From: Candidatus Zhuqueibacterota bacterium
GTDB lineage: Bacteria; Zhuqueibacterota; Zhuqueibacteria; Thermofontimicrobiales; Thermofontimicrobiaceae
Assembly (NCBI GenBank): GCA_049322915.1
Contig: JBMOPW010000001.1
Span: 1 to 64,000 of the forward strand
Reading direction: 5' to 3'
Length of the DNA: 64,000 nucleotides
Positions 35,000 through 64,000 of the stretch are shown one piece after another. A model generated the notes under the pieces. It did no database searches, was not told the DNA's origin, and worked only from the letters and a program-made list of their open reading frames with translations. A program made the position numbers and the translations under genes. Position 1 is the stretch's first letter. Every line of letters begins with the position of its first letter.

Positions 35000-35043
35000 A
35001 AAAGGCTGTTTACCGGAATGATTTCCTGAATGGCCTTTTTTTT
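35000..35043 (+). terminator. Probable intrinsic terminator
   Basis: aaaaggctgtt..aatggcc followed by a T8 run. Confidence 0.5.
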
Positions 35044-36656: not shown

Positions 36657-36778
36657 AGTGGCGCAGGGACGAAAGTCACTACACAAATAGCGGAGAGTAT
36701 GGGTGAAGATTCACACCTTCGTTCGCTGATCGTCCCAAACAATCATCAACAATGAATCAAACCAATTCGGAGGAAAAA

Positions 36779-36979: not shown

Positions 36980-37507
36980 TTTCTCTTTGCCAATAATGAT
37001 GAACCTTCACGAGACCCCGACGGGACAGCAATGGAACGTCGGGGTATTTTTTTTCCTGAGACGGCGGCTCCGATGAGCAGGGAATCGTAGTTCCAGGCGA
37101 AATGGGAAGACAGCCGCAATGCCTTCACTGCCCGGACCACTCATTGAAAAGAAAGCCCTTTTTCACTGGATTTAAAAGCTCTTGCTGCTCATGTCTGAAC
37201 CGAATTGCCTGATGCGTCATTCCGGGATGGCGGTGGAAATCGGACGGCGATCATCAGGATGGCCTGGCTTCTCTTGCCACTGCGACGCAGTTTGGATGCA
37301 ACATCGCTGCACCAAAAAATGAAAAAATGCCTTGACTTTATATCTGCTTTAATTTATATTCATTTCAATTTCGAATGTCTTGCAATTGCAGTCGCACAGC
37401 GATTGGCCTGTTCCGATGCTGTTCCCGGTTACATCAGGAGTTCATTTGAGTAGCGAGTGTTGGATAAAGTTGTTGACAGAGAAACATGCAAAGCGGAGGA
37501 TTTGTTC

Positions 37508-39205: not shown

Positions 39206-39320
39206 GTCGCTCCATCGGCGTCAGAACAGAGCAGCCGTGCGCATCGGCAACGGTTGGCGCGCTGAAATCACCTGAAAAGTGAAAAAATATTCCAAGCGTA
39301 TCAGATTGATTTTTCTTGGA

Positions 39321-39364
39321 GCTGATGGCTGATAGCTGATGGCTGATAGCTGAAAGCTGAAAGC
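39321..39364. repeat. Heptamer tandem repeat (GCTGAWR)x6
   Basis: gctgatg gctgata gctgatg gctgata gctgaaa gctgaaa. Confidence 0.85.
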
Positions 39365-39453
39365 GAATCGCTCAAAGTAGGCTGAATAAAAAATGAATGC
39401 ACGAACATCACCTATGAACACATATTGCGTTGGATTGAAGAAGAGGAGTTCCC

Positions 39454-40164
39454 ATGAAAGTCAAGGTTCGAATTTTCAGATATAATCCGGAAGAAAACCG
39501 GGAAGGCAGATTGGTCGATTACACCGCCGAACTGGAGCCAGGCATGTCGGTGCTGGCGCTACTGCATCAGATTCACGATGAGCAGGACGAAACGCTGGCC
39601 TATCGCTATTCCTGCCGCGGCGCGATTTGCGGCACCTGCGCGCTTCGGATTAATGGCATGGCTCGGCTGGCGTGTAAAACACAGGTGGCGGATTTGTTGA
39701 AGGAGACCGAGACCATCACCCTGGAGCCACTGGCCCATTTCGGCGTGGTCAAAGATCTGGTCGTGGATCGCGTTCCGTTCTGGCAGGCGGTGAAAGCCAC
39801 CATGCCCTGGCTTGTCCGCGAAAAAGAGATGGCTGATGAGCGGCTGACCTACGAATCCCATCTGGATAAAATGTCGCTGGATCAATTGAATCACTCGGCA
39901 GATTGTATCAAATGCACCTGCTGTTATTCGGACTGCCCCAAAGTGGATGAAGCGCCGGAATTCGTTGGGCCGGCGGTGTCCATTCAGGTGTATCGGCAGA
40001 TGTTCGATCCGCGCGACAGAAACACAGAGGCGCGGGCGAAGTTTATCGGCGCTGAAAACGGGGTCTCTGCCTGCGATAAACATGCAGTCTGCGTGAAAGT
40101 TTGTCCCAAGGACTGCCGGCCATTGCGGGCGATTACATTTATTCAAAAACGTATTGGGGCGTGA
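39454..40164 (+). CDS. sdhB: Succinate dehydrogenase/fumarate reductase iron-sulfur subunit
   Basis: SCRGAICGTC..LAC, CIKCTCCYSDCP, CDKHAVCVKVCP. Confidence 0.9.
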   Translation: MKVKVRIFRYNPEENREGRLVDYTAELEPGMSVLALLHQIHDEQDETLAYRYSCRGAICGTCALRINGMARLACKTQVADLLKETETITLEPLAHFGVVKDLVVDRVPFWQAVKATMPWLVREKEMADERLTYESHLDKMSLDQLNHSADCIKCTCCYSDCPKVDEAPEFVGPAVSIQVYRQMFDPRDRNTEARAKFIGAENGVSACDKHAVCVKVCPKDCRPLRAITFIQKRIGA

Positions 40165-40201
40165 AAACAGCTAACGAGGAGACAACCATTGTGAGGAAAT
40201 C

Positions 40202-41365
40202 ATGGGACGGATGATAAATTTCGATCATAATTCTGCAACCCAACCGTTGCCTGAAGTGGTAGAGAGCATGCTGCCATTCCTGCGTGAAAATTTTGGCAAT
40301 CCATCCAGCATGCACAGCGAGGGACAAAAGGCGAAAGCAGCCCTGGAAAATGCCAGGGAACAAGTGGCGGCGCTGATCAATGCATCTCCGGAAGAGATTT
40401 ATTTCACGGCGTCCGGCAGCGAGTCCAACAATTTTGCTATCAAAGGCGTTGCGGTCGGAAATCAGAAAAAGGGGAATCATATCGTCGTGTCAGCGATCGA
40501 GCATTTCTCGGTGCTGCAATCGGCAAAGTCGCTGGAGAAACTGGGATTCGCTGTGACCCTTTTACCTGTGGATGGCGCGGGCATGGTGAATCCCGCGGAT
40601 GTGAAACAGGCGATCACGGACGAAACCATTCTCGTGTCCATCATGCACGCCAATAATGAAGTGGGCACGATTGAGCCCATCGAAGAGATCGGGCAGATTG
40701 TGAAAGAGCGGGGAATTCTCTTTCACAGCGACGCAGTTCAGACGGCCGGATCCATTCTGGTGGATGTCCGCCGGTTGAATGTCGATCTGCTGAGCCTTGC
40801 GGCGCAGAATTTCTATGGCCCGAAAGGCGTTGCAGCGCTTTACATCAAAAAAGGAACGCGCATTAATCCGCTCATCGATGGCGGCATCCAGGAAGGCGGG
40901 CGTCGCGCCGGCACGGAGAACATGATGGGAATTGTGGGCATGGGCGCTGCCGCAGAAATTGCGCTTCAAAGAATGGACGAGCGGATGACCCACGTTCGGT
41001 CCCTGCGCGATGCCATGATTCGCACCATCGAGGAGAAGATTGAGCATGTCTATCTCCACGGGCATCGGGAGAAGCGGCTGCCGAATAATGTCAGTTTTGG
41101 ATTTGAGTACATCGAAGGCGAGTCGATTTTACTCTTCCTCGGAATGGATCAAATCATCGCGTCGAGCGGCTCTGCCTGCGCATCCAAAGCCTTGAAGGCG
41201 TCCCACGTTCTTTTGGCTGTCGGCGTTTCCCATGCCATTGCCAACGGGACGATTCTGTTCACACTGGGAATCGATAATACCCGGGACGACATCGCGCTGT
41301 TGGGCGAAAAATTGCCCGGCGTGGTGAACAGGCTCCGGGAGATGTCGCCGTTGTACAAACGATGA
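40202..41365 (+). CDS. iscS: Cysteine desulfurase (IscS/NifS type)
   Basis: FGNPSS, IEH, HANNEVG, HSDAVQ, FYGPKG, RAGTEN, SSGSAC; the usual PLP-lysine motif HK(F/I)YGPKG reads QNFYGPKG. Confidence 0.9.
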   Translation: MGRMINFDHNSATQPLPEVVESMLPFLRENFGNPSSMHSEGQKAKAALENAREQVAALINASPEEIYFTASGSESNNFAIKGVAVGNQKKGNHIVVSAIEHFSVLQSAKSLEKLGFAVTLLPVDGAGMVNPADVKQAITDETILVSIMHANNEVGTIEPIEEIGQIVKERGILFHSDAVQTAGSILVDVRRLNVDLLSLAAQNFYGPKGVAALYIKKGTRINPLIDGGIQEGGRRAGTENMMGIVGMGAAAEIALQRMDERMTHVRSLRDAMIRTIEEKIEHVYLHGHREKRLPNNVSFGFEYIEGESILLFLGMDQIIASSGSACASKALKASHVLLAVGVSHAIANGTILFTLGIDNTRDDIALLGEKLPGVVNRLREMSPLYKR

Positions 41366-48323: not shown

Positions 48324-51300
48324 ATGCCATCACAATTCAATTTGGAAGACGATGAGAGTCCTGGACAATTAACGACGACCATCAGACAATTGCGTCCGGG
48401 GGATCACCTGTGCTCTATATTCGAAACTATCCAGGAGCATCGGTCGATAATCACGACGTTCATTCTGACTGGTTTCGATCGTAATGAACGGGTGGTGTAC
48501 ATTGGCGATGATCATTCTGTTGCGCAAATTGAAGCGTACCTGACGGATGCTCAGGTTAATCTCGCTTCGTACATTGAAGCAGGTCAGTTTATCTTCCTCA
48601 AAGCATCGGATATTTATATTGCCGACGGCACATTCGAACCGGAAAAGATGATTCAATATTTGAAGGACCAGACCGAATACTCGCTGGCGTGTGGATACGA
48701 CGCGCTGCGGGTTTCTGGTGAAATGTCCTGGATGTTGAAGGGAAATTTTGGTACAGATCAGTTGATTCAATACGAAGCCATGTTGCTTGAGTTTTTCCTT
48801 CAACATCGATGCCTGGCCCTGTGCCAATACGATAAGACAAAGTTCAGCGCCGATGTGTTGCTGGATGTCTTGCGCACCCATCCTTTGGCCATTGTCGGCG
48901 ACGATGTCTATAAAAACTTTTATTACCTTCCACCCTGCGAAATTCTCAATCCGGATCGCAACGAAGCCAAACTTAAATACTGGCTTGAAAATTTGAAAAA
49001 ATTCAATCGGACTGAAGAACAACTTCACGAGGTTGACCGCAGGTTTCTAACGCTGATTAAAAACCTGCCAGGCTTTGTCTATCAATGCCTGAATGACCGC
49101 GATTGGACGATGAATTTTATCAGCGAAGGTATTACCAATACGTTGGGTTACACCGTTGACGAAATGAAAAAAATGAGTTATGCCGGCATCATTCATCCAA
49201 ACGATAGTGAGCTGGTCTGGGATGAAATTCAAGAAGCCTTGCACCAGAAACAGCCATTCCGGATTCATTACCGGGCAAGGACGAAAGCCGGGGCCTATCG
49301 CTGGATGCTGGAACAGGGTTGTGGCGTTTTCGACCGCAACGGTGAATTAAAACACCTGGAAGGATTCATTACAGATGTCCACGATGAGCGATTCGCAAAA
49401 GAAGATCGCGATCGGTTTTTTAATCTGACCACCGATTTGATCTGCATGATAACCGCCCGGGGCATTTTCAAATTCGTCAACCAGGAATGGGAAAAGGTGC
49501 TGGGGTATAAACAGATCGAAATGGTTTCCCGGCCGGTTTTGAATTTCATTCATCCCAATGATGTTGCGGAGTACAAACGAATCATCAGACGATTGAAAAA
49601 AAGCGAAAGCACGATTCGATTTGAAAATCGCTATGTACACAAGGATGGCTCCGTTAAACTCATCGAATGGACTGCGACGCCCAGCGTTGAATCGGGATTA
49701 ATTTACTGCATTGGCCGCGATGTCACTGATGACCGCCGCTTGCACACTATGCTTCTTGAGAATGAGCGACGGTTGCGAAACGCTCAAAAAGCCGGTAAAA
49801 TTGGCAGTTGGGAAGTGGATTGCAAAACAGAGACATGGACAGTCTCGGATGAGTTTAGACGAATTCACGGCGTCGAGTCGAATTACTTCTCCATGAAAAA
49901 AATGCGAGCCTTTGTTTTTAAAGACGATGTGCAGTTATTTGAACACGCTTATCGGAGGACAGTGGAAAAGCAGTCGCCCTTTACCTTCGAGCATCGCATA
50001 ATCAAACAGGACACTCGAGAAATCCGCTGGGTGCTGAAGCAGGGCGAATTGGTCTGTGACGAGCGGAATCGACCCATCCAGTTGATTGGAACGACGCAGG
50101 ACATCACCGATCGGAAGCAGATTGAACTCGCACTGCAACGGGAGAAGGAACGCGCTCAGTATTATCTCGATATCGTCGGGGTGATGCTCGTTGTTCTGGA
50201 TCGCAGTGGACAGGTTCGTCTCATCAATAAAAAGGGGTGCGCCATTCTGGGGTATTCCGAAGCGCAGGTCATCGGGAAAAATTGGTTCGATCATTTTTTA
50301 CCTGAATCCAACAGGGATGAGGTGAAGCATGTGTTCACCCAACTGATGGCTGGAAAAATAAAGACGGTTGAATACTTTGAAAACGACGTGATAACCAGCG
50401 ATGGAAATCCCCGATTGATCGCCTGGAAAAATTCAATCCTGTGGGACGAATTGCATCGGCCGACCGGCATACTGAGTTCCGGCGAAGATATAACTGAAAA
50501 GCGGCAGGCGGAACAACAGATACAGTTCAGTAAAAAAATGCTTTCCGACACAGGCAAGATGGCGAAGATAGGAGGATGGGAGCATGATCTCATCACCGGG
50601 AAAGCAGATTGGACGGATACGCTGTATGAAATTGTTGAAATTCAACCGGGCAGCACCCCCCCCGGAGTTCAGGAACACCTCAGTTATTATCCTCCCAAAG
50701 ACCGGGCTATTCTCGAAAGTGAGTATCAACGCGCTATTGAGGAAAAGCGGCCGTTCGATCTTCGGCTTCAGGCATACACGGCCACTGGAAAACTGTTATG
50801 GTGCCATGTGCGCGGCGAACCAGTCATTGAAAACCAAAAATGTGTGAGGTTCCGAGGCGTGCTTCAGGATATTACAGAGCAGATGCGGATCGAGGAAGCG
50901 CTGCGGCAATCTGAAACGCGCTATCGGTACCTGTTCGAGAATGCGTCCATTGCCATCGGCATGTCAGATGCCGACGGCAGGGTGATCGCTGCCAATCAGG
51001 TGATGGAGCAACTCACCGGTTTTTCGTCGGAGGAATTCCAGAAGATAAAACTCATGGACATTTACGTCGTGCCCGAGGATAGGGATCGATTAATCGCCAC
51101 AATACGGAAGGAGGGCAAAGTCAGAAATTTCGAAACGCATCTTCATCGAAAAGATGGAACCCTCTATCTTGCCCGATTGAATGTGGATGTGATCAGGATC
51201 GGCGGGGAAGAAATGCTCCTCACGATCGCGCAGGACATCACAGAGAGCAGACGGATGGAAGAAGCGCTTCGCATGGAGCGGGAGCAGCTTCTCTCGCTGT

Positions 51301-52370
51301 TCGACAGCATTGACGAGATGATTTATGTGTCCGACCCTATGACCTACGAAATGGTCTATGTGAATAAAAAATTGCAGCGCATGCTGAATTCAGACGGAGC
51401 GGGCGAAACCTGTTACAGGCTTCTTCAACGCAAAGAAGCGCCCTGCGAATTCTGCACCAATCATTTTATTCTGTCAAATGACCATCAGCCGTATCAGTGG
51501 GAATATCATAATCCATGGTTGAACAAAGATTTCATGCTGACGGACCGCTTGATTCGCTGGCCAGATGGCCGGGATGTACGATTTGAACTGGCGATCGATA
51601 TTACCGATCGGAAAATTGCTGAGGCCGAAATTCAAAAATTGAACCGGGAATTGGAGCAGCGCGTCAAGGATCGGACTTTTGAACTGGAAGCGGTGAACAA
51701 AGAATTGGAAGCGTTCAGCTATTCGGTCTCTCATGATCTGCGCGCCCCGCTTCGCCACATCAGCGGATTTGTAGACATGTTGCGAAAAAATATGGGCGAG
51801 ACAACCTGTGAGAAGAACTCTCACTATCTGGATGTCATTCGCGAATCCGCCCAGCGGATGGGAAACCTGATCGATGAGCTATTGGCGTTCTCGCGGACGG
51901 GCCGCTCCGAAATTGCCTGGAAAAATTTCGATGCCGATACATTAATTCAGGAAGTGATTCAGGAATTGCAGCCTGAGATTGGCGCGCGAACCATCACCTG
52001 GAAGCTCTTGCCGTTGCCTGAAATTTATGCCGATCCATTGAAACTGCGTCACGTATTTGTGAATCTGATTTCCAATGCCATTAAATTTACACGACAGCAG
52101 CAGAATCCGGTGATTGAGGTGAGCGCGACCAGAGGCGACAGCAAGGAATACGTGTTTGCCGTGCGGGACAATGGGGTTGGTTTTGATATGAAATACGCGA
52201 ATAAACTTTTTGGGGTATTCCAGCGGCTGCATCGGACAGAAGAATTCGAGGGCAATGGCATTGGGCTGGCGAATGTTCGTCGCATAATCCATCGACACGG
52301 CGGTCGGACCTGGGCTGAAGGAAAGTTGAACGAAGGAGCCACTTTTTACTTCACCGTTCCCATGAAGTAG
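48324..52370 (+). CDS. MEDS-domain multi-PAS sensor histidine kinase
   Basis: N-terminal MEDS (PGDHLC, LRVSGEMSW, YEA, LCQYD, VLRTHP); about 7 PAS domains; FSYSVSHDLRAPL; NLISNAIKF; FGVFQRLH; GIGLA. Confidence 0.9.
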   Translation: MPSQFNLEDDESPGQLTTTIRQLRPGDHLCSIFETIQEHRSIITTFILTGFDRNERVVYIGDDHSVAQIEAYLTDAQVNLASYIEAGQFIFLKASDIYIADGTFEPEKMIQYLKDQTEYSLACGYDALRVSGEMSWMLKGNFGTDQLIQYEAMLLEFFLQHRCLALCQYDKTKFSADVLLDVLRTHPLAIVGDDVYKNFYYLPPCEILNPDRNEAKLKYWLENLKKFNRTEEQLHEVDRRFLTLIKNLPGFVYQCLNDRDWTMNFISEGITNTLGYTVDEMKKMSYAGIIHPNDSELVWDEIQEALHQKQPFRIHYRARTKAGAYRWMLEQGCGVFDRNGELKHLEGFITDVHDERFAKEDRDRFFNLTTDLICMITARGIFKFVNQEWEKVLGYKQIEMVSRPVLNFIHPNDVAEYKRIIRRLKKSESTIRFENRYVHKDGSVKLIEWTATPSVESGLIYCIGRDVTDDRRLHTMLLENERRLRNAQKAGKIGSWEVDCKTETWTVSDEFRRIHGVESNYFSMKKMRAFVFKDDVQLFEHAYRRTVEKQSPFTFEHRIIKQDTREIRWVLKQGELVCDERNRPIQLIGTTQDITDRKQIELALQREKERAQYYLDIVGVMLVVLDRSGQVRLINKKGCAILGYSEAQVIGKNWFDHFLPESNRDEVKHVFTQLMAGKIKTVEYFENDVITSDGNPRLIAWKNSILWDELHRPTGILSSGEDITEKRQAEQQIQFSKKMLSDTGKMAKIGGWEHDLITGKADWTDTLYEIVEIQPGSTPPGVQEHLSYYPPKDRAILESEYQRAIEEKRPFDLRLQAYTATGKLLWCHVRGEPVIENQKCVRFRGVLQDITEQMRIEEALRQSETRYRYLFENASIAIGMSDADGRVIAANQVMEQLTGFSSEEFQKIKLMDIYVVPEDRDRLIATIRKEGKVRNFETHLHRKDGTLYLARLNVDVIRIGGEEMLLTIAQDITESRRMEEALRMEREQLLSLFDSIDEMIYVSDPMTYEMVYVNKKLQRMLNSDGAGETCYRLLQRKEAPCEFCTNHFILSNDHQPYQWEYHNPWLNKDFMLTDRLIRWPDGRDVRFELAIDITDRKIAEAEIQKLNRELEQRVKDRTFELEAVNKELEAFSYSVSHDLRAPLRHISGFVDMLRKNMGETTCEKNSHYLDVIRESAQRMGNLIDELLAFSRTGRSEIAWKNFDADTLIQEVIQELQPEIGARTITWKLLPLPEIYADPLKLRHVFVNLISNAIKFTRQQQNPVIEVSATRGDSKEYVFAVRDNGVGFDMKYANKLFGVFQRLHRTEEFEGNGIGLANVRRIIHRHGGRTWAEGKLNEGATFYFTVPMK

Positions 52371-52606
52371 TTCGCGCCGGTATTGATACATGCTGAGATG
52401 CACCCGCTTCTGCCAATAATCGAAGAGGCGGTTATCATTGGAGACTATACGAATCAGAGATTTCAATTTCGATGTAAGAAAATGACACGCAGTAAATGAT
52501 GGTGGAATCCACTGAAAATCAGGGTCTGAATCGGAATGTCGTTTGAACCAACACTCCGACGAAATGTCCTGTGGCGGATAAATCATATCAACAGAAAGGA
52601 TGAATC

Positions 52607-53056
52607 ATGGAGGGATTAAAACGAATTTTGCTGGTTGAAGATGATGTGAACGATGTGGAATTGACGCTCGAATCACTCAGGGAATACAATCTGGCAAATG
52701 AAGTTATTATCGCCCGCGATGGTGAAGAGGCGCTGGAGTATCTCTACAGGAAGAACAGATTCGAGCATGCCCCGGAAGGCCAGCCGGTGGTCATTTTCCT
52801 GGACATTAAAATGCCGCGCGTGAACGGATTGGAGGTGCTGCGAATCATCAAAAACGATCCGGATTTACGCCTGATCCCGGTGGTGATGGTCACCTCGTCC
52901 CAGGAAGAGCCGGATCTGAAAGAGGCGTACGAGATGGGGGCCAATGCGTATGTGGTGAAGCCGGTGGATGTGCAGCAGTTCATGAATGCGATCAAAGAAC
53001 TGGGAGTTTTTTGGGCTGTTTTCAATATGCCTCCTCCCGGCTGCATTAAAGATTAA
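52607..53056 (+). CDS. Single-domain response regulator (Rcp1-like)
   Basis: ILLVEDD, FLDIKMP, VTSS, GANAYVVKP, FW. Confidence 0.92.
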   Translation: MEGLKRILLVEDDVNDVELTLESLREYNLANEVIIARDGEEALEYLYRKNRFEHAPEGQPVVIFLDIKMPRVNGLEVLRIIKNDPDLRLIPVVMVTSSQEEPDLKEAYEMGANAYVVKPVDVQQFMNAIKELGVFWAVFNMPPPGCIKD

Positions 53057-53267
53057 ATCCCTGATATGTTCTTTCAATTCCGTGAGAGGCCCGGCTCAGG
53101 CTGATGCCGCGCATCGGAGAGGATTCGGTGTTGCATCGGACGACTGAGATGGATATGGCGCTTACCTGAAATTGAAAAAAGGTCGCGTCCACTCAGGACA
53201 AATCCGCGACAGGGAACAGTCAACCGATGATTGAAATGGTATTGATTCAGAAAAGGAGACGCACATC

Positions 53268-55196
53268 ATGGGGACTTGCTTGAACATCCTCCATTTAGAG
53301 GACGATCCCATTGATACTGAAATTGTTCAGGAGGCGCTGAAGGCGGAGAATCCCTTTTGCGAGATATTACGAGTGGATACCCGGGACGATTTTGTCGCTG
53401 CACTGGAGGCGCGGACGTTCGACCTGATTCTGGCCGACTACTCGCTGCCCATGTTCGATGGATTGAGTGCATTGTCGTATGTCAAAGAACATTATCCCGA
53501 GATACCATTCATCCTGATCTCCGGGACGCTGGGCGAAGAATTGGCCATAGACAGTCTCAAATTGGGCGCCACCGATTATGTCATCAAACAACGGTTGTCG
53601 CGGCTGGTACCTTCGGTGAAACGCGCACTCAAAGAAGTGGATGACAGGAATGAGCGACGGAGAACAGAGGCTCAATTGGCGCGGCTGGCATCCGTGGTGG
53701 AGCAGGCAAGTGAAAGTATTGTCATCGTTGATTTGAATGGCGATATTGAATATGTCAATCCCAATTTTGAACGCCTCACCGGGTACACTGCCGCAGAAGT
53801 CCTGGGCAAAAACCCAAAAATCCTGAAAAGCGGAGCCCAACCTGAAAGTTACTACCGGGATTTGTGGCAGACCATTTCATCCGGTAAAACCTGGTTCGGT
53901 ATTTTTCAGAACAAACGAAAAGATGGGGTCCTTTTCTTCGAAGACGCCGTCATTTTTCCCATTAAAAATCAACAGGGCGTTATCATCAACTATGCAGCGG
54001 TCAAGCGGGATATCACCAGTGAAAAATTATTGGAAGAACAGCTACTCCAGTCCCAGAAACTGGAGGCCATCGGCCAGTTGGCTGGCGGGATTGCTCATGA
54101 TTTCAACAATATTCTCACGGCAATTATGGGGTACTCTGAGGTGGCATTGATGAACCTCAATTCGAACGACCAGGTTTACTGGGATGTCAAAGCCATTATC
54201 AAGGCCGGGCAAAAAGCGAGCAACCTGACGAGACAATTGCTGACGTTCAGCCGCAAGCAGATCATTCAGCCGAAAATTATCGATATCAACCGGCTCATCA
54301 CCGATCTGGAAAAGCTGCTCTATCGTCTCATCAGCGAAGATATCAAATTGAAGATGGCTCTTTCGGATAAAATAGGCAGAATTCATGCGGACCCCGGCCA
54401 GATCGAGCAGGTTTTAATCAACCTGGTGGTCAATGCCCGGGATGCGGTCAATCACCCGTCGATTGCAGTGACGCGCCGAAATATAACCATCGAAACGCGC
54501 GATGTCATGGTGGACGATGCATCTCTGTTGACTCACACCGACATGGCGCCCGGTCGCTATCTGCTCTTGTCAGTCAGCGACACGGGCATTGGCATGATCG
54601 ATGAGATAAAGCGAAAAATATTTGAGCCCTTTTTCACGACAAAAAAAATCAGCCAGGGTACCGGCCTGGGCCTGTCGACTGTCTATGGCATTGTGAAACA
54701 AAACAATGCCACCATTCTGGTTGACAGCCAGGTCGATCGAGGCAGCACTTTCACGATCTATTGGCCTTGCGCTGAAAGCGCTGAACCACTTTACGACACG
54801 CCTGAAGAAGAAACACCGCTGGTTGGCGGAAATGAGAGGATCCTGTTTGTGGAAGATGACGATCGAGTCCGCGCTTTCTCTGTCAAAGCGCTCAAATCCC
54901 TGGGTTACGAAGTGATCCCGGCTCGTGATGGCGCTGATGCGTTGAGGATAGTCAGACGGAAAAAAATCACATTTGATCTGCTCATCACCGATGTCGTGAT
55001 GCCGGAAATGGGCGGCATTGAATTGGCTGAAAAATTATCCGCAGACAGAGATGGATTTAAAGTGCTGTTCACTTCGGGCTATCTGGACAGAGATTATACC
55101 GATCATGACATTCTCAAAGAGGAAATAAACTTCATTCAAAAGCCTTATAGAATCCACTCGATGGCGAAGAAAATCCGGGAGGTTTTGCTGCGGTAG
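53268..55196 (+). CDS. REC-PAS-histidine kinase-REC hybrid
   Basis: N-terminal receiver (LEDD, ADY), PAS, GGIAHDFNN, NARDA, GTGLGL, C-terminal receiver. Confidence 0.92.
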   Translation: MGTCLNILHLEDDPIDTEIVQEALKAENPFCEILRVDTRDDFVAALEARTFDLILADYSLPMFDGLSALSYVKEHYPEIPFILISGTLGEELAIDSLKLGATDYVIKQRLSRLVPSVKRALKEVDDRNERRRTEAQLARLASVVEQASESIVIVDLNGDIEYVNPNFERLTGYTAAEVLGKNPKILKSGAQPESYYRDLWQTISSGKTWFGIFQNKRKDGVLFFEDAVIFPIKNQQGVIINYAAVKRDITSEKLLEEQLLQSQKLEAIGQLAGGIAHDFNNILTAIMGYSEVALMNLNSNDQVYWDVKAIIKAGQKASNLTRQLLTFSRKQIIQPKIIDINRLITDLEKLLYRLISEDIKLKMALSDKIGRIHADPGQIEQVLINLVVNARDAVNHPSIAVTRRNITIETRDVMVDDASLLTHTDMAPGRYLLLSVSDTGIGMIDEIKRKIFEPFFTTKKISQGTGLGLSTVYGIVKQNNATILVDSQVDRGSTFTIYWPCAESAEPLYDTPEEETPLVGGNERILFVEDDDRVRAFSVKALKSLGYEVIPARDGADALRIVRRKKITFDLLITDVVMPEMGGIELAEKLSADRDGFKVLFTSGYLDRDYTDHDILKEEINFIQKPYRIHSMAKKIREVLLR

Positions 55197-55409: not shown

Positions 55410-55598
55410 ATGAAAGCGAAAATTGATCCCGAATTATGCACAGGTTGTGAGCTTTGTGTCGAGACATGCCCGGAAGTATTTGAAATGGGCGATGATGTTG
55501 CTGTTGTTATTGTCGATGTCGTCCCGGAAGATGCGGAAGATTGCTGCCAGGATGCCGCTAATGACTGCCCCTCAGAGGCGATTGCTATTGAAAACTAA
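55410..55598 (+). CDS. fdx: Single-cluster ferredoxin
   Basis: CTGCELC..CP..CPSEAI, acidic; aggaggt RBS; TTGACT-N17-TATATT promoter at 55263. Confidence 0.9.
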   Translation: MKAKIDPELCTGCELCVETCPEVFEMGDDVAVVIVDVVPEDAEDCCQDAANDCPSEAIAIEN

Positions 55599-55754
55599 GC
55601 GATTGGCGCTTTCAGCGACAATTGATTGAAAAGTCGAAGTGCGCAAAAATACAATTTAAGTTCATGGTTCAAATTTTTTCAAATAAAATTCGTTCTATGC
55701 AATTTATTTTTGCGCACTGCCAACTTGATTGAATAGCATTATAACAGGTAAATT

Positions 55755-56765
55755 ATGGAATTTAAAATAGCTTTTCAAAAGCAGAACGTAATGCGGATGG
55801 TTGTGTATTCATTGCTGCCGGCGGTTTTGGGAAGCGTGTATTTCTTTGGCTGGGTGAGCCTGGCCATTGTTCTCGTCTCGGTCGTCACGTGCGTGTTGAC
55901 TGAATGGCTGTTCGTTCGGGGAAAAAATGGCAAGGTGACCGAAGCTGTTTTTGTTACGGCTGTCCTCTACGCGCTGACGTTGCCGCCGACACTGCCGTTT
56001 TACATGGTCATTATTGGCGCTATTTTTGGAATAACCTTTGGCAAGATGGCGTTCGGCGGTTTTGGAAATAATCCCTTTAACCCGGCTCTGGTGGGTCGCG
56101 GATTTGTGTATATCACATTCCCGATTCAAATGACCAATGTTTGGCTGCCCGCAGCAAATTTTTCTGATTTCCCCGGCGGTTTTGTCGCGTGGAAATTTTC
56201 CGCTCTCTCCGATGGCCTCAGTGCAATCACATCTGCAACCCCATTGAGCGCATTTCGCGCCGGCGCAACCACTCTTCCTGACTACTGGCAGTTGCTTCTC
56301 GGAAATATAAACGGCACTTTTCAAAATCTGGGGGAAACCACGCGCATCGGCGGCGGCTCGATTGGAGAAACGTCGGCTGTTCTGTTGATGATTGGCGGTC
56401 TGTATCTTGTTTTTAAAAAAATTGCCAACTGGAAATTGGTGGTGAGTTTTTTCGGCACATTCATCATATTCCAGTCGCTGCTTCATGTTTTGGCCCCGGC
56501 CAAAGTGCCCCATCCTTTATTCGGACTATTCGCCGGCGGCGTTGTGTTAGCCGGCTTTTTTATGGTGACAGACCCGGTCTCTGCCTCGCGCACTGAAATT
56601 GGCCGGTGGATTTACGGCGCGATGATTGCCATTCTAACGATTATCATTCGGGCATTCTCGCTGTTTGCCGGGGGCGTGATGTTTGCCATCCTCCTTGCCA
56701 ATATGTTCGGCCCGTTGATCGATTACGGCATAACCAGCTATCAACAAAGGAGCAAAACCAAATGA
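55755..56765 (+). CDS. NqrB/RnfD-family membrane subunit
   Basis: GKMAFGGFGNNPFNPALVGR, FMN site ITSATPL, GSIGETS, FFMVTDPVS, ILLAN; 336 aa. Confidence 0.88.
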   Translation: MEFKIAFQKQNVMRMVVYSLLPAVLGSVYFFGWVSLAIVLVSVVTCVLTEWLFVRGKNGKVTEAVFVTAVLYALTLPPTLPFYMVIIGAIFGITFGKMAFGGFGNNPFNPALVGRGFVYITFPIQMTNVWLPAANFSDFPGGFVAWKFSALSDGLSAITSATPLSAFRAGATTLPDYWQLLLGNINGTFQNLGETTRIGGGSIGETSAVLLMIGGLYLVFKKIANWKLVVSFFGTFIIFQSLLHVLAPAKVPHPLFGLFAGGVVLAGFFMVTDPVSASRTEIGRWIYGAMIAILTIIIRAFSLFAGGVMFAILLANMFGPLIDYGITSYQQRSKTK

Positions 56766-57529
56766 AGAAAAGTCTGAGTACAATTGGTTTTATGGTCCTG
56801 ATCACGGTTTTATTCATTTCAGCCCTGGCGTCCATTAACGAGTTAACAAAAGAACAGATCGATCGAAATTTACAGATTGAAAAATATAAATCTATGCTGT
56901 ACGCCTTCAATATTTTTCCGAAGGGAATTAACGAAAGCCAGTTTTCGCTGACGAGCACAACGGATGATATTCCCTGGGAAACGGCCCAAATTCGTGAAAA
57001 TTATGAAACACAAATAATCAGTAAAAAAATTCCCATGGAAAAGGGCGACCCGGAATTATTGAAAAATAGCTTCCTCGCTTTGACTGATTCCGTGGAAGTA
57101 TTCATTCGCCTGAATGAGGAAAACCAGCCGACGGCCTACGGGTTCCCCATGAGGGGAAAAGGATTGTGGGGCACAATTACCGCTTTCGGCGTGATTTCAG
57201 CGGACCTGACAAAAATGGTTGGTATCGATTTCACAGAGCAAGTCGAAACGCCCGGCCTCGGCGCCCGGATTCTCGAAATAGAGTTCAAGCAATTCTTTCG
57301 CAATCTGGATCTGAGCAGACTCCAAAATTCATCGGCGGCCCGACCGGCCATCATCATGGTTCGCAAAAAAGAAATTACCAACATGGATGAATCGACCAAC
57401 AGCCTCCAGGCAATCACAGGCGCAACTTTAACGTGCAGCGGTGTTCTTAATATGATAAATACCGATTTGAAGTTTTACGTGAATCTGCTTCGAATGAACG
57501 AGCAGTACTTGAAAAATAGGGACAGTTAG
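56762..57529 (+). CDS. nqrC: NqrC/RnfG-family FMN-binding subunit
   Basis: N-terminal TM, GKGLWG, ETPGLG, AITGATLT; ATGA overlap with the upstream gene. Confidence 0.85.
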   Translation: MKKSLSTIGFMVLITVLFISALASINELTKEQIDRNLQIEKYKSMLYAFNIFPKGINESQFSLTSTTDDIPWETAQIRENYETQIISKKIPMEKGDPELLKNSFLALTDSVEVFIRLNEENQPTAYGFPMRGKGLWGTITAFGVISADLTKMVGIDFTEQVETPGLGARILEIEFKQFFRNLDLSRLQNSSAARPAIIMVRKKEITNMDESTNSLQAITGATLTCSGVLNMINTDLKFYVNLLRMNEQYLKNRDS

Positions 57530-57605
57530 CAGGCTGTTGTGAAATCGAATCATTTAGCATTTCACCATTTTAAGGATTTCATAGCGTTCAACGCATGAGG
57601 TTTTC

Positions 57606-58250
57606 ATGGCAAAGATTAAAGCGATTGATATTATAAAAGAGGATCTGTGGAAAAATAATCCGGTAACCGTGCAAATCCTCGGGATTTGTTCTACTCTGGC
57701 CGTGACCAATATTTTCCTGAACACGTTGATCATGGGGCTGGGATTGACATTTGTCACTGCCTTTTCTTCGCTGACAGTTTCGGTGATTCGAAATATCATT
57801 CCGGCGCGAGTGCGAATGATGGTACAAACGCTCATCATCGCCAGTTTTGTGGTGATCGTCGATATCATCTTAAAAGCGTATGTGCCGAATATCAGCAAAG
57901 CGCTGGGGCCGTACGTCGGTTTGATCATCACCAATTGCATTATCATGGGTCGGCTCGAGGCTTTCGCTTCATCGAACAAGCCATCGATGGCTTTTCTGGA
58001 CGGAATTATGTCCGGCATTGGTTATACGTACGTTCTGTTGATCATTGCATTTTTCAGGGAACTGCTGGGCTTCGGAACCGTTCTTGGCTTTGAGGTGATG
58101 AATCCGTTGATGACTGCTATTGGCCAGACCGATGGCTGGACTCAATGGGCATTTATGATTATGGCGCCGGGCGGATTTTTTATGCTGGCCATTTTTATCT
58201 GGATCAGTAAAAATCTCACAAGTTTGAAGGTGTCGCATTCACAAAAATAG
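57606..58250 (+). CDS. nqrD: NqrD/RnfE-family subunit
   Basis: NNPVTVQILGICSTLAVT, VGLIITNCIIMGR.EAFA, RELLG. Confidence 0.88.
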   Translation: MAKIKAIDIIKEDLWKNNPVTVQILGICSTLAVTNIFLNTLIMGLGLTFVTAFSSLTVSVIRNIIPARVRMMVQTLIIASFVVIVDIILKAYVPNISKALGPYVGLIITNCIIMGRLEAFASSNKPSMAFLDGIMSGIGYTYVLLIIAFFRELLGFGTVLGFEVMNPLMTAIGQTDGWTQWAFMIMAPGGFFMLAIFIWISKNLTSLKVSHSQK

Positions 58251-58262
58251 GAGTTCATTTAA

Positions 58263-58853
58263 ATGGAAGGCTTATCCCCCTGGGTAATATTTTTTGCATC
58301 CATTTTCACCGGCAATATTTTGCTGGTATATTTTCTCGGCATGTGCTCGTTTCTATCCGTGTCCAGTCAGGTGAAAACATCGATGGGACTGGGACTTGCC
58401 GTAACCTTTGTACTGACAATCACCTCCGCATTGAATTATGTGGTGTTCAATTATATTTTAGTGCCAATGGGCATTGACTATTTGCGCTATATTGCATTTA
58501 TCGTCGTCATTGCAGCTGTCGTGCAGTTGCTGGAAATGATTATTGAGCGATTCTCCGAAGCGTTGTATTTGAACCTCGGCATCTTCCTGCCTTTGATCAC
58601 GGTGAACTGCGCCATCCTCGGCGTGTCGTTATTTATGGTCATTCGAAATTACACATTCATCCAGAGCGTCATGTTCGGCGCCGGAAGCGGTATCGGATGG
58701 ATGCTGGCAATTCTGGCCATGGCAGGCATTCGCCAGCGCATCAATATGCAGCGCATTCCGGTCGCTTTGAGAGGGCCCGGCATTGCGTTGATTATTTCCG
58801 GAATAATGGCCATGGCATTCATTGGTTTTTCAGGCATGGTTCAAATACAGTAA
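58263..58853 (+). CDS. nqrE: NqrE/RnfA-family subunit
   Basis: FLGMCSFL.VS, VIAAVVQLLEM, LGIFLPLITVNCAILG, G.MAMAF.GFSG. Confidence 0.88.
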   Translation: MEGLSPWVIFFASIFTGNILLVYFLGMCSFLSVSSQVKTSMGLGLAVTFVLTITSALNYVVFNYILVPMGIDYLRYIAFIVVIAAVVQLLEMIIERFSEALYLNLGIFLPLITVNCAILGVSLFMVIRNYTFIQSVMFGAGSGIGWMLAILAMAGIRQRINMQRIPVALRGPGIALIISGIMAMAFIGFSGMVQIQ

Positions 58854-58927
58854 GTACCAACGCTGTCTTCCTAAATTTCAGGTTCAACCGGAAAATGCAG
58901 AAATTGAATAGGTATTAAGGCAATAAT

Positions 58928-60037
58928 ATGGTTGCAAAAATTATTATCGCCACGGCCGCAATGGCCGGAATTAGCGGCATTCTTTCCATTCTGCTGGTGA
59001 TTGCAGAGCGGTTTCTGGGGAATTATGGTGAATGCAAAATTCTCATCAACAATGAAAAAGAACTGACGGTCAACGGCGGCGCTTCGATTCTGGCGTCGCT
59101 GAATCAGCAGAAAATTTTTCTGCCCTCGGCGTGCGGCGGACGGGGCACGTGCGCGTACTGCAAATGCAAGGTTTTCGAAGGTGTGGGACCGCTGCTGCCT
59201 ACGGAAGAACCATTGCTCACCAAGCAGGAAATCGACTCTCATGTGCGGCTGGCGTGCCAGGTGAAAGTGAAGCAGGACATAAAAATTGAAATACCTGAAG
59301 AATTGTTCAACATTAAAGAATTCGATGTTGACGTGGAGTCCATTAAAAATTTAACGTATGATATAAAATTGCTTCGATTGAAGCTGGTGGAACCGAAGGA
59401 GATAAATTTCATTCCTGGGCAATATGTGCTGTTGATTTCGAAACCATATCCCGGTGTGAAAGAATCGGTTTCGCGTGCATATTCCATTGCCTCACCCAAT
59501 TATGAAAAAAACCATCTCGATTTAATGGTGAGATTGGTGCCGGAAGGTATTTGCACCACATGGGTTCACCAGCATCTGCAGGAAAATGAGCGAATTAAAA
59601 TTGTCGGGCCTATGGGCGATTTTCAATTGCACAAGGGCGACGGCGAAATAATTATGATCGCCGGTGGTTCCGGTATGGCGCCTATGGTTTCGCTCTTGGC
59701 CGAAATCGCTGAAAAGAAAATCGATAGAAAAGTCACCTATTTTTTTGGATCCGTTGCAAAAAGAGATTTGTTTTACCTCGAAGAAATGGCTGCTTTTGAA
59801 AAACAGATCAGCAATTTTAAATTCGTTCCGGCCCTGTCTCAACCGGCAGAAGGCGATGAGTGGGAGGGCGAAACAGGGCTGATTACAATTCCGCTTTCAC
59901 AGTATATCAAAGACAATGACAATTCCAAAAGCCAGGCTTACTTGTGCGGCTCACCCGGAATGATAAACGCCTGCACAGTTATTTTGAAGAAATACAATTT
60001 TACAACCGACCGTATTTATTTCGATCCGTTCGCCTGA
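58928..60037 (+). CDS. nqrF: NqrF-like NADH-oxidising subunit (TM anchor, 2Fe-2S, FAD, NAD domains)
   Basis: SACGGRGTCAYC..RLACQ, RAYSIAS, GPMGDF, AGGSGMAP, YLCGSP, FDPF. Confidence 0.88.
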   Translation: MVAKIIIATAAMAGISGILSILLVIAERFLGNYGECKILINNEKELTVNGGASILASLNQQKIFLPSACGGRGTCAYCKCKVFEGVGPLLPTEEPLLTKQEIDSHVRLACQVKVKQDIKIEIPEELFNIKEFDVDVESIKNLTYDIKLLRLKLVEPKEINFIPGQYVLLISKPYPGVKESVSRAYSIASPNYEKNHLDLMVRLVPEGICTTWVHQHLQENERIKIVGPMGDFQLHKGDGEIIMIAGGSGMAPMVSLLAEIAEKKIDRKVTYFFGSVAKRDLFYLEEMAAFEKQISNFKFVPALSQPAEGDEWEGETGLITIPLSQYIKDNDNSKSQAYLCGSPGMINACTVILKKYNFTTDRIYFDPFA

Positions 60038-60064
60038 GATTTTAAGACGCAGAGGAGCTTCGCA

Positions 60065-60520
60065 ATGAAACCCACGCCTCATGAAAATAAAATTATTACA
60101 AATTTTCTGCCAGGGAAAATTTCCATGGATGGCTTTTTAGGAACCGATACCAGGCATGTGCACGATATTATTGCCGACGACAACCTGATACTGGAACGAT
60201 TGGGAGTTACGCATGAACAAATCGCTGATCGACTTCAGTTTTTCATCAATGAAGGGAAAAAAGCTATTGAGGGCGAAGCCTCGGTTAATCATTATCGTGT
60301 GAAAACGATTTGGAGCAGGGGAATGCTGGCATGCCCGTTCGGGGAACCGCGACTGCATCATAAAATTGTAACGACGGTGATCAATACAAAATTGGGTCAG
60401 GAAATCGTTTACTCGCAACTTAATGTGCACATGATCCGGGATCATGGATTTTTTGAAGGAAAAGGAGCGAAATTCAGAGTTGAACCGGAACGTGTTGTTC
60501 GTGTTCTGGAATTAAAATAA
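60065..60520 (+). CDS. Hypothetical protein at the end of the nqr-like operon
   Basis: gaggag RBS, 27 bp after nqrF; motifs GFLGTD, RGMLACPF, HMIRDHGFFEG. Confidence 0.75.
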   Translation: MKPTPHENKIITNFLPGKISMDGFLGTDTRHVHDIIADDNLILERLGVTHEQIADRLQFFINEGKKAIEGEASVNHYRVKTIWSRGMLACPFGEPRLHHKIVTTVINTKLGQEIVYSQLNVHMIRDHGFFEGKGAKFRVEPERVVRVLELK

Positions 60521-60961: not shown

Positions 60962-61480
60962 ATGATTTCCAATAAAATGACCGAGCAGATAAACGAACAG
61001 ATTAAGAATGAGTTATTCTCCGGCCATCTGTATTTATCGATGGCAGCCTATTGCGCTTCCAAGGATATGGACGGCTTTGCCAATTTCTTTGTCGTGCAGG
61101 AACAGGAAGAACGATTCCATGCGATGAAATTCTTCCACTACCTCGTCGAGCAAAACCAGGATGTTAAAATTTTCGGGTTGGATCAACCGCAGACGGAATT
61201 TAAATCGCTGGAAATAGTCATCGAGGAAGCCTGGAAGCATGAGCAAAAAGTGACAGCCATGATCAACAAATTGATGAAGTTAGCCGTGGAAGAGAATGAT
61301 TATGCCACTCAGAATTTGTTGAAATGGTATATCGATGAGCAGGTGGAAGAAGAGGCGACCATGCTGGGGCTTCTCAAAAAAATCAGATTAGTCGGCGAGA
61401 AGGGGCATGGCATTTTCATGATCGACCGCGATCTGGCGCAGCGAACCTACACTCCGCCAGCCGCTGCCGAGGAAGAATGA
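60962..61480 (+). CDS. ftn: Non-heme ferritin
   Basis: NEQIKNE..YLSMA, QEERFHAMK, HEQKVT, WYIDEQVEEE. Confidence 0.92.
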   Translation: MISNKMTEQINEQIKNELFSGHLYLSMAAYCASKDMDGFANFFVVQEQEERFHAMKFFHYLVEQNQDVKIFGLDQPQTEFKSLEIVIEEAWKHEQKVTAMINKLMKLAVEENDYATQNLLKWYIDEQVEEEATMLGLLKKIRLVGEKGHGIFMIDRDLAQRTYTPPAAAEEE

Positions 61481-61585
61481 TCAACTCATTTTACATGTAT
61501 CTTTCGACGGATCGAATAAGACCATTTTCATTTATTCAATTTTGAAATTTTCACATCGCTGTTTAACTGTGACAGGAGGTTAATC

Positions 61586-61960
61586 ATGACTCAATTAAAT
61601 CAGGTGTACAAGTGCAGTGTTTGCGGGAACATCGTCGAAGTCGTCCATACCGGCGCAGGCGAATTGGTCTGCTGTGGTCAGCCGATGAAGTTGCTCAAAG
61701 AGAACACAACTGAAGCGTCCACGGAAAAACACATTCCGGTGATTGAAAAATCAGGTTCGAAAGTAACGGTGACCATCGGCAGCGTGGAGCATCCCATGGA
61801 AGAGAAACATTACATCGAATGGATTGAAGTGCTGGCGGATGGTAAAGTGTACAGAAAGTACCTGAAGCCCGGCGACAAACCTCAGGCTGAATTTGAGATC
61901 ACCGCGAATAAGATCGAAGCTCGCGAGTACTGCAATTTGCATGGATTATGGAAAGCTTAA
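61586..61960 (+). CDS. dfx: Desulfoferrodoxin (superoxide reductase)
   Basis: [39 protein letters not shown]. Confidence 0.95.
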
Positions 61961-62008
61961 TCGCTGATTGGAAGCGTTCAAATTTCATTGGAAAATAAAG
62001 GAATCATT

Positions 62009-62536
62009 ATGGATAAATACAATGAACGTAAAGGATTGTATGCGCTGAAAGGCAATCCGCTCACGTTGCTGGGGCCGGCGCTCAAAGTCGGCGATAAGGC
62101 ACCGGCGTTTCAGGTCGTCGATAATGGACTCAAGCCGGTGAATCTGAGCGATTTTGCCGGGAAGGTGATCGTGCTGAGCGTCACTCCCTCGGTTGATACA
62201 ACGGTCTGCGATCTCCAGGCCAAGCGTTTCAACAAAATGGCGACAGAGGTTTCAGGCGATGTCGCGATTCTGAACATCAGTCTGGACATCCCATATGCCT
62301 TATCGCGCTGGTGCGCGGCCACCGGCTCGGATCAGATCAAAACGTTGAGCGATTATCAGGAGCGCGAGTTCAGTCTGAAGTATGGCCTGCTGGTCAAGGA
62401 ATTGAAATTATTGGCCCGCTCCGTCTGGTTGCTGGACAAAGAGGGGATTATTCGGTACATCGAAATCGTCCCTGAAATGGCGCAGGAACCAAATTATGAA
62501 AAAGCTCTGCACCATTTAACACAATTAGTTTCATAG
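62009..62536 (+). CDS. tpx: Thiol peroxidase (atypical 2-Cys peroxiredoxin)
   Basis: PSVDTTVC, ISLDIPYA.SRWC, LLARSV, EPNY. Confidence 0.9.
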   Translation: MDKYNERKGLYALKGNPLTLLGPALKVGDKAPAFQVVDNGLKPVNLSDFAGKVIVLSVTPSVDTTVCDLQAKRFNKMATEVSGDVAILNISLDIPYALSRWCAATGSDQIKTLSDYQEREFSLKYGLLVKELKLLARSVWLLDKEGIIRYIEIVPEMAQEPNYEKALHHLTQLVS

Positions 62537-62553
62537 ACTAAGTACCACAAGAC

Positions 62554-62597
62554 AATTCCAACACCTGGCCTTCAAAAAAGCAGGTGTTGGAATTTTT
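62554..62597 (+). terminator. Intrinsic terminator after tpx
   Basis: aattccaacacctg..caggtgttggaatt-ttt, 14-bp stem. Confidence 0.75.
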
Positions 62598-62706
62598 ATG
62601 TTCATCCGGAGAGAACTGGATATTCGGGATTGCAATCGGCAGGGGCACGGTCAAGTTTCTACCGAAACAATTCTTGGGCGATTCACCTACTTTTTCAGGA
62701 GATCCA

Positions 62707-64000
62707 ATGAAAAACTTTTTATTCTTTCTCACCTTACTGTTGGTGTGCGTTTCAGTGGTATTCGCACAGGATTTACCTGGCGGCGATGAAGCGCTTGGCA
62801 CCAAAAAGTACGATCAATATGAAAAACCGGAGGCGTGTAAAAGCTGTCATCCGGATATTTATCAGCAGTGGACCCAGGCTATGATGTCACAGGCGTACAC
62901 GCACCATTGGGATGAAATCGAATACTTCGATCTGGCGGTCGCGCACAGCAACGTCGATCCCAAAATCAAACCCGTCTCCGATGGCTGCAATGGCTGCCAT
63001 ACTCCGCTGGCCTTTCTGGCCGGCGATGTTCCGCCGCCCCGTCCCGCTGAGAATTCGCGCGCCAATGAAAGCGTGAGCTGCGATGTGTGCCATACGATTA
63101 ACTCTTTCAAAGGCGATACCCCATTCAACTTCAGTTTCGTTTCGCAGCCGGGCCGTAAAAAATGGGGCAACAAGCCGGGATTGGTTTCGCCCCATCACGA
63201 TACTGAAGAGAGCGATTTCATGAAGCAGGCCGAGTTCTGCGGTAATTGTCACAATGAAAAAGACCCGTACGGCATCTGGGTGAAATCGACTCACCTGGAA
63301 TGGAAAGATGGTCCCTATTCCAAAGAGGGCGTTCCCTGTCATCGCTGCCACATGCCGCAGGCCTGGGGCAAAAATGCAACCATGGCCAACGAGGCAATGG
63401 TGTCCCAGCATCTCTTCCACGGCGCGCATGATCCCGGTAAACTTGCCGGCGCGATTGAATTGCGCATGCATCCGGAAGAGCGGGACGTTCAATATGACGA
63501 CGTGGTTGTGCTCAAAGTTCAGCTATTCAACGCGAAAGCCGGACACAAAATTCCCACTGGCTCGGTTGAAGATCGCATCCTCTGGCTACATGTAACCGCC
63601 ACCGATGCCAACGGAAAAACGTACCATCTCCTGGTGGATAAGAAAGGCTTTGATGGAGAGGAATACACGATTGCCGCGGATGTCCTTGCTTATCAGGATA
63701 TGGGAATCCCCAAAGGCATCGCGGACTTCGCCGGCGTGCAACGCGATGGTGTGCCTGTGGGCGACCGTATTTTCCGCATGCCCTATTTCGATCCCCAGGG
63801 AAGAATGACCATCATGCAATGGAATACAGCTTCGCTCGGCGTGGATTACCGGATTGGGCCGCGAGAAACAAAAATTGAAACGTTTTCATGGACGCTGCCT
63901 GCGGATATTCCGCCAGGAAAAGTGACATTTAAAGCAGTACTCAATTATCAAAAACTGGTCAAACCCGTGGCTGATTACCTCAATGTTCCTGCCGATGAGA
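62707..64000 (+). CDS. Exported multiheme cytochrome c (c554-like), truncated by the window end; absent from the supplied ORF track
   Basis: aggaga RBS; MKNFLFFLTLLLVCVSVVFA signal peptide; CKSCH, CNGCH, CDVCH, CGNCH, CHRCH; KAGHKIPTG; frame appears open to 64000. Confidence 0.88.
   Translation, partial: MKNFLFFLTLLLVCVSVVFAQDLPGGDEALGTKKYDQYEKPEACKSCHPDIYQQWTQAMMSQAYTHHWDEIEYFDLAVAHSNVDPKIKPVSDGCNGCHTPLAFLAGDVPPPRPAENSRANESVSCDVCHTINSFKGDTPFNFSFVSQPGRKKWGNKPGLVSPHHDTEESDFMKQAEFCGNCHNEKDPYGIWVKSTHLEWKDGPYSKEGVPCHRCHMPQAWGKNATMANEAMVSQHLFHGAHDPGKLAGAIELRMHPEERDVQYDDVVVLKVQLFNAKAGHKIPTGSVEDRILWLHVTATDANGKTYHLLVDKKGFDGEEYTIAADVLAYQDMGIPKGIADFAGVQRDGVPVGDRIFRMPYFDPQGRMTIMQWNTASLGVDYRIGPRETKIETFSWTLPADIPPGKVTFKAVLNYQKLVKPVADYLNVPADE

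Follow-up and report, generated by a model that had tools for sequence, protein, structure and literature searches.

To which acceptor does a complex of the Rnf/Nqr family pass its electrons when NqrA, RnfC and RnfB are all missing? The question is raised by an operon in a 64,000-nucleotide stretch of DNA (the window; positions 1 to 64,000 of contig JBMOPW010000001.1, assembly GCA_049322915.1) from a Candidatus Zhuqueibacterota bacterium, in which genes related to nqrBCDEF (referred to as B to F) are followed by a gene for a protein that we call X (Table 1). For NqrA-less nqrBCDEF the acceptor has been a stated unknown since 2014 (PMC4148951, PMC5924567). We report that the window operon, as judged from its sequence, is an intact six-gene B-C-D-E-F-X unit with all core cofactor motifs and no NqrA, RnfC or RnfB. 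Moreover, comparative data narrow the acceptor, which is not reached through an NQR-type quinone site, is probably not a low-potential ferredoxin, and most likely belongs to a rubredoxin-linked oxygen-defence chain.

The preliminary description of the window listed a ferredoxin gene (fdx), B, C, D, E, F and a 151-residue gene, and all seven were confirmed as plus-strand open reading frames (ORFs). Likewise, both flavin mononucleotide (FMN) attachment motifs that it reported, TSAT and TGAT, are found intact, and no nqrA, rnfB or rnfC is present among the ORFs of the gene cluster. The four cysteines of D and E, which we take to be the expected intramembrane Fe-S ligands, are all intact as well. 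F carries the NqrF-type input set for reduced nicotinamide adenine dinucleotide (NADH), i.e. an anchor, a [2Fe-2S] domain, a flavin adenine dinucleotide (FAD) domain and an NAD domain; its best family is nqrF with 266 bits, below the cut-off of 295, and two inserts of canonical NqrF are missing.

The rest of the host genome (G000, 96% complete; contigs labelled C1, C10, C16 and C34) was examined for the missing parts. A cognate nqrA is absent there too: the sole TIGR01936 match is an RnfC on C10, with 24 bits against a cut-off of 321, and rnfB gave no match over the cut-off in this genome. The C10 gene is the sole true rnfC and lies in a decayed rnfC-rnfD-rnfA remnant, where RnfC has lost the GxGGxxFP motif and kept two [4Fe-4S] motifs, and where RnfA is devoid of cysteines and 50% identical to that of a congener (G101) with an intact rnf C-D-G-E-A. 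A complete Rnf on C10 was rejected, G, E and B being absent there. Because the C10 locus is a remnant and the genome yielded one FMN_bind protein (the window C) and three Rnf-Nqr membrane proteins, the window operon is the only complete core found in it; apbE is present on C34. An RnfC-like gene on C16 was rejected as a true RnfC, since it sits in a bacterial microcompartment locus and looks PduS-like; aldehyde dehydrogenase, aldolase and acetate kinase genes of that locus were likewise labelled by sequence appearance.

The B subunit passes the rnfD cut-off (257 bits versus 207) and fails that of nqrB (190 versus 350). Its residue 25 aligns with residue 124 of Vibrio cholerae NqrB, and approximately 100 N-terminal residues are thus absent, as the preliminary description had proposed. 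The quinone site of NQR is formed by two N-terminal amphipathic NqrB helices that are absent from RnfD (PMC12174285), and Gly140-Gly141 of NqrB are quinone-site glycines (PMC4014512). Window B has Cys46-Val47 at this position, and the second glycine is present in 0 of 43 members of its clade versus 11 of 13 NqrB and 6 of 8 proteins from the A* operons described below. Judging from these alignments, the NQR-type quinone site is missing from B. The earlier remark that the redox partner on the B side is unexplained stands.

Combined B, D and E sequences were used to compute a tree with IQ-TREE, in which 51 of 77 operons remained after removal of near-duplicates and Rnf served as the root. Here 25 X-type operons together with L151 form one clade (100/100) beside canonical Nqr plus one group of A* operons (100/98), and another A* group falls outside the X-type and Nqr clades (93/76, weak). 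The F tree agrees (X-type clade 100/97). On these trees the window operon is placed as a separate lineage on the Nqr stem, the third of the Rnf/Nqr family; the label "hybrid" given to it at first is not upheld, and it is not a truncation either. The approximately unbiased (AU) test did not reject a clade that unites the X-type operons with canonical Nqr (p = 0.072), a result with which loss of the quinone site and its never having been gained both agree. One genome (G136) carries canonical nqr, rnf and an X-type operon together.

In the A* operons (order A*-B-C-D-E-F; 14 in 12 genomes), A* is an RnfC/NqrA homologue in which the FMN/NAD motif is missing and two [4Fe-4S] motifs are present. Their B has the quinone glycines and is longer by 50 residues at the N-terminus, the F subunit is of NqrF type, and among the 8 that continue beyond a full F none has X. 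RnfC was predicted to have become NqrA via loss of its NAD, FMN and Fe-S sites (PMC4014512), and the A* operons, with one group as the sister of canonical Nqr, resemble such predicted intermediates between Rnf and NQR. The C10 RnfC of the host, with its FMN motif lost and both Fe-S motifs kept, parallels A*. In a second A* type (L145 in G221 and L147 in G190) F is cut to the anchor and the [2Fe-2S] domain (149 residues), and the NuoE/NuoF-like genes that come next suggest another input module.

The gene for X is a regular member of the X-type operons. A search begun with B gave 16 related loci, and X follows F in all 12 that reach far enough. A search begun with X located it in 28 of 133 own-phylum genomes (24 adjoin F), in 29 of 201 genomes of Spirochaetota (29 of 30 loci adjoin F) and in 15 of 251 genomes of the Desulfobacterota group (15 of 15), that is, directly after F at 68 of 73 loci in the three samples together; the earlier suggestion that the 151-residue gene is part of the system is borne out. 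The 29 spirochaete genomes with X are exactly the 29 with a B of at least 280 bits, a threshold set after the scores were seen, and in the own phylum 22 genomes have a high-scoring B, all but one of them together with X; the exception ends on a short contig. The same six genes are present in a cultured bacterium, Ilyobacter polytropus DSM 2926 (ILYOP_RS10220-RS10195), and Cloacimonas acidaminovorans also carries X.

X remains beside F even where the membrane core is gone. In four genomes (G022, G023, G024 and G474; loci L065, L078, L054 and L208) an F without its anchor immediately precedes X, and core genes are missing upstream of this F; D/E-type genes are missing altogether from G023 and G024, and G022 and G474 have one pair only, in assemblies that are fragmented or incomplete (87-96% where stated). 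The anchor-less F proteins are nested in the clade, and supported branches force at least two origins. Because X stays with anchor-less F after loss of the core, it is predicted to be a partner of F and not of B, and on this evidence X is linked to F. That X replaces NqrA/RnfC on B, an idea that came from their mutual exclusion, was dropped after these modules were found, and a role for X on the B side is unlikely. Among 23 scanned X proteins, picked mostly for extra length, X is fused to rubredoxin (P0160, P0161), to a rubrerythrin-type domain (P0106) and to a nitroreductase (P0171); two other long proteins (P0200, P0229) with thioredoxin-like or aldo-keto reductase parts may be chimeras. In G023 and G024 a nitroreductase gene is also located directly upstream of the module.

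Neither a Pfam or NCBIfam match nor an Fe-S motif was found in X. It has a single cysteine (C90), replaced by serine in 9 of 42 operon-linked homologues, an invariant His122 and a near-invariant His127 (38 of 42). The "Cys/His motifs" ascribed to it earlier are therefore an overstatement, and X as an Fe-S or metal redox carrier was rejected given its one replaceable cysteine. Its invariant Asp, Arg, Lys and His residues are candidates for a catalytic site or one that binds a ligand. No hydrophobic helix is present (maximum 19-residue hydropathy 0.59, versus 2.34 for the F anchor). The predicted structure is confident, with a predicted local distance difference test (pLDDT) value of 94, and gave no match to solved folds (Foldseek best E 0.2, VIA-align best Z 2.6), which does not make X a new fold. 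DUF7919 (PF25535) gave no match to the window X at E ≤ 0.05; two of 22 relatives match weakly (E 0.01 and 0.03, under the cut-off) and the domain is annotated on 13% of members in one Atlas cluster. X is possibly a remote DUF7919 relative, with a link that is faint at most. The X domain is found in unrelated contexts as well, at times as repeats (1,929 clusters). In P0091, P0134, P0176, P0219 and P0232 it forms two to four repeats in large unrelated proteins, and it therefore has uses outside the complex.

The genes around the operons point to oxygen defence. After duplicate contigs had been dropped, 30 of 55 operons had genes for oxygen or peroxide defence or iron storage no more than 3 kb away (62 such genes over 312 kb), compared with none of 39 rnf loci (204 kb), none of 13 nqr loci (53 kb) and none of 7 A* loci (30 kb), where the defence queries were drawn from neighbours of the same operons and kin are not independent. 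Rubredoxin is encoded within 3 kb, beside X, in 11 of the 55, in two phyla. One inherited block is argued against because different lineages use different defence genes. The window operon itself lies inside an oxygen-defence island (C1, approximately 30 to 75 kb; some labels by sequence appearance only), with rubredoxin at 71.3 kb, 11 kb past X. A block of PAS kinase and response-regulator genes interrupts this island.

Table 1. Location of the operon, neighbouring features and other loci referred to in the text (window positions unless a contig or locus is named)
Feature	Position	Strand	Description
fdx	55410-55598	+	single-cluster [4Fe-4S] ferredoxin, 62 residues; Pfam Fer4_13/Fer4_15
Promoter-like match	55626-55655		between fdx and B
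Inverted repeat	55639-55719		gtgcgcaaaaa ... tttttgcgcac, between fdx and B
B (NqrB/RnfD family)	55755-56765	+	336 residues; FMN site TSAT (159-162); no NqrB N-terminal extension
C (NqrC/RnfG family)	56762-57529	+	255 residues; FMN site TGAT (219-222); FMN_bind protein
D (NqrD-like)	57606-58250	+	214 residues; Cys28/Cys111
E (NqrE-like)	58263-58853	+	196 residues; Cys28/Cys116
F	58928-60037	+	369 residues; membrane anchor, Fer2, FAD_binding_6, NAD_binding_1
X	60065-60520	+	151 residues, soluble; starts 28 bp past F; sixth operon gene
Context outside the complex	60962-62536	+	ferritin, desulfoferrodoxin (superoxide reductase), thiol peroxidase
Island parts	30175-41365, 60962-64000, on to C1 ~75 kb		Rrf2, cydAB, Fur-family regulator, rubrerythrins, glutathione peroxidase, SdhAB-like, IscS-like, ferritin, superoxide reductase, Tpx, SOD-like, rubredoxin
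PAS kinase and response-regulator block	48324-55196
NirB-like reductase	C1:81786		soluble; named by N-terminal motif only
rnf remnant (C10)	L029:8242-11521		rnfC-rnfD-rnfA
Microcompartment locus (C16)	L030:3077-13273		PduS-like RnfC homologue
A* loci	L141-L147, L251-L254, L256, L257		genomes G033-G036, G072, G190, G221, G228, G340, G382, G417, G448
Second A* type	L145:11904-17126, L147:5002-12829		F cut short; NuoE/NuoF-like genes next

The explanation we prefer, held tentatively and at less than an even chance, is that the operon encodes an ion-pumping NADH oxidase that feeds rubredoxin-type carriers for oxygen defence, with X as an accessory of F. The complex would run forward like NQR: F would oxidise NADH, electrons would pass via FAD, [2Fe-2S], the D/E cluster and the FMN on C to the FMN and riboflavin on B, and Na+ or H+ would be pumped out during this flow. 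The riboflavin face of B, having no RnfC/NqrA cap or quinone pocket, would reduce a soluble one-electron carrier well above the potential of NADH, and the best-fitting carrier would be rubredoxin at about -70 to +20 mV (-66 and +16 mV are reported in PMC12019745; NAD, -320 mV, PMC7414866). Rubredoxin would then pass electrons to superoxide reductase, rubrerythrin or flavodiiron proteins, and the removal of oxygen and peroxide would thereby be coupled to ion pumping. X would be a cofactor-poor accessory bound to F that supports F where NqrA would otherwise do so, brings in the carrier, or does both. For the neighbouring ferredoxin to serve, it would have to be in a higher-potential form such as [3Fe-4S]. 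In favour of this explanation are the intact motifs, the separate clade, the missing NQR-type quinone site, the spirochaete carriers that have no UbiA-family prenyltransferase (12 of 29), the defence and rubredoxin genes near the operons, the island around the window operon, the natural fusions of X and the potentials of rubredoxins, ferredoxins and NAD.

Apart from the way the neighbourhood counts were obtained, several observations weigh against this. No defence gene lies near 25 of the 55 operons and 44 have no adjacent rubredoxin, while three clade-type operons (L151, L249, L250) have neither X nor an A-like gene. The NirB-like soluble reductase encoded farther along C1 could reduce rubredoxin without a pump. 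The window's island includes cydAB, and UbiA-family genes are present in all 21 tested carriers of the own phylum. Finally, the rubredoxin link runs via X, and X goes with F and not with B, which would fit an exit of electrons at F equally well.

The last point is the basis of an unlikely alternative in which F and X form an NADH:rubredoxin (or NADH:di-iron protein) reductase module and the membrane core is a side branch, e.g. for electron export to the outer face via the FMN of C, or for ion-driven reverse flow feeding F. The core-less modules with their separate origins, as well as the fusions of X to rubredoxin and to a rubrerythrin-type domain, would be expected if electrons leave at F. 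However, the full operon is far commoner than the four core-less cases in their fragmented or incomplete genomes, and B keeps the acidic residues that match NqrB E144, E274, D346 and D397 (E50 in 43 of 43, E205 in 42 of 43, D273 in 40 of 43 and D323 in 43 of 43), as expected if electrons reach the riboflavin.

We give a lower probability to an NADH:menaquinone oxidoreductase (or one for another lipophilic carrier) that has a different quinone site and feeds cytochrome bd to scavenge oxygen, with X acting in the maturation or repair of F's cofactors. The cydAB genes, which also occur beside two other operons, and the UbiA-family genes of the own phylum would agree with it, as would the three operons in which X is dispensable. 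The quinone helices and Gly141 are absent, however, and UbiA-family prenyltransferase genes are absent in 12 of 29 spirochaete carriers (both UbiA counts are mostly from metagenome assemblies, filtered at 90% completeness). Moreover, the maturation factor NqrM is small and membrane-bound, unlike X with its one cysteine and no membrane helix or Pfam match.

An ion-coupled NADH:ferredoxin enzyme, with the adjacent ferredoxin acting on the B side, was the wiring put forward in the preliminary description, which had let it depend on conservation of the fdx linkage. We now regard it as improbable, and by that standard the wiring is in large part refuted. Of the 55 operons, 49 have no ferredoxin gene within 2 kb upstream. 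The 6 that do fall into two unrelated groups: four belong to close relatives and have the window's type, and two belong to spirochaetes and have another type. In the window a promoter-like match, by consensus only, separates fdx from B. The window ferredoxin is, on these counts, a lineage-specific and optional neighbour rather than a constant part, and its link to the operon is weak. RnfD normally hands electrons to a ferredoxin-like domain of RnfC, and the core pumps in the F-to-B direction along the path given in the same paper (PMC12174285); a [3Fe-4S] form, at -130 mV, would be a workable acceptor, whereas single-cluster ferredoxins were found at -385, -404 and -280 mV (PMC12019745). Because F-to-B is the pumping direction and such a ferredoxin lies below NAD, transfer from NADH to a four-cysteine ferredoxin at about -400 mV would be uphill in both redox and pumping, and reverse flow from ferredoxin to NADH would waste the gradient; a low-potential ferredoxin is thus probably not the acceptor. 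As further features of these upstream regions, the inverted repeat noted by eye between fdx and B overlaps the promoter-like match and is possibly a regulator site or an RNA hairpin, and in L132 and L133 (G328, G333) B is immediately preceded by genes for a 2[4Fe-4S] ferredoxin and for one or two hemerythrins.

That an RnfC encoded elsewhere caps B, in the host the C10 RnfC, is very improbable. Of the 46 carrier genomes, 37 encode at another site an RnfC that passes the cut-off, and the C10 RnfC and RnfD are 67% and 75% identical to those of the congener, near the 70-88% of neighbouring genes. Nine of the 46, however, have no RnfC over the cut-off, the C10 RnfC sits beside its own RnfD, and with an intact RnfC electrons would merely circle from NADH back to NAD+, which nothing would drive.

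With respect to known systems, the window operon shares with Na+-NQR (NqrABCDEF of V. cholerae; PDB 7XK3, 8A1T) the B-C-D-E-F order, the NqrF-type input, two covalent-FMN motifs, the D/E cysteines and the stem in the tree, and differs by the absence of NqrA, of about 100 N-terminal residues and Gly141 in B and of two inserts in F, by the extra X and by its separate clade. With Rnf (RnfCDGEAB; PDB 7ZC6, 8AHX, 9ERI) it has the membrane core in common, with an RnfD-sized B, but it has no RnfC or RnfB, its input is of NqrF type, and a long branch (100/100) sets it apart. It is NQR-like on the input side, yet a member of neither NQR nor Rnf. The NQR/RNF-like systems of Meheust et al. 2021 (PMC8238504) also consist of partial Nqr/Rnf parts without NqrA/RnfC; those, however, are one protein that fuses NqrB/RnfD to an NAD-binding domain with a single transmembrane path, whereas the window operon keeps the whole core. 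The proposed output chain matches those from soluble NAD(P)H:rubredoxin oxidoreductases to flavodiiron proteins and related defence enzymes, but the known reductases are soluble NirB-family flavoproteins for which, in the available text, ion pumping is not described (PMC6033852).

The five-gene form is already known. It is in print from Pseudothermotoga thermarum, Pseudothermotoga lettingae and Clostridium ultunense (PMC4148951, PMC5924567); PMC4148951 states that the other participant is unknown, and PMC5924567, on C. ultunense and P. lettingae, leaves the acceptor open. It is mentioned in passing in PMC6256511 and PMC9558581, and PMC6349859 and PMC9751042 contributed nothing further. These loci (Tlet_0865-0869, Theth_1137-1141, CUESP_0375-0379) have the same five genes in the order B-C-D-E-F, and the window operon was compared with them by description and likened by gene order alone. 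The available parts of these accounts make no mention of a sixth gene, an oxygen-defence link or a tree. A literature search that covered few subscription journals and no supplements found no study on the acceptor and no published account of the sixth gene, of how it is tied to F or of the link to defence.

Our data name the sixth protein and tie it to F, and I. polytropus DSM 2926 provides a cultured host with the same operon. In the tree, both the X-type clade and the A* operons lie along the route that leads from Rnf to NQR. Taken in its widest form, which we consider doubtful, the X-type complex would be a quinone-free, ion-pumping NADH:rubredoxin oxidoreductase with a sixth subunit that has no solved fold match, a third functional class of Rnf/Nqr that descends from a stage before present NQR and through which strict anaerobes in many phyla would conserve energy as they clear oxygen, superoxide and peroxide. 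If the preferred explanation holds, fermenters would be able to link the detoxification of oxygen to ion pumping with no quinone involved.

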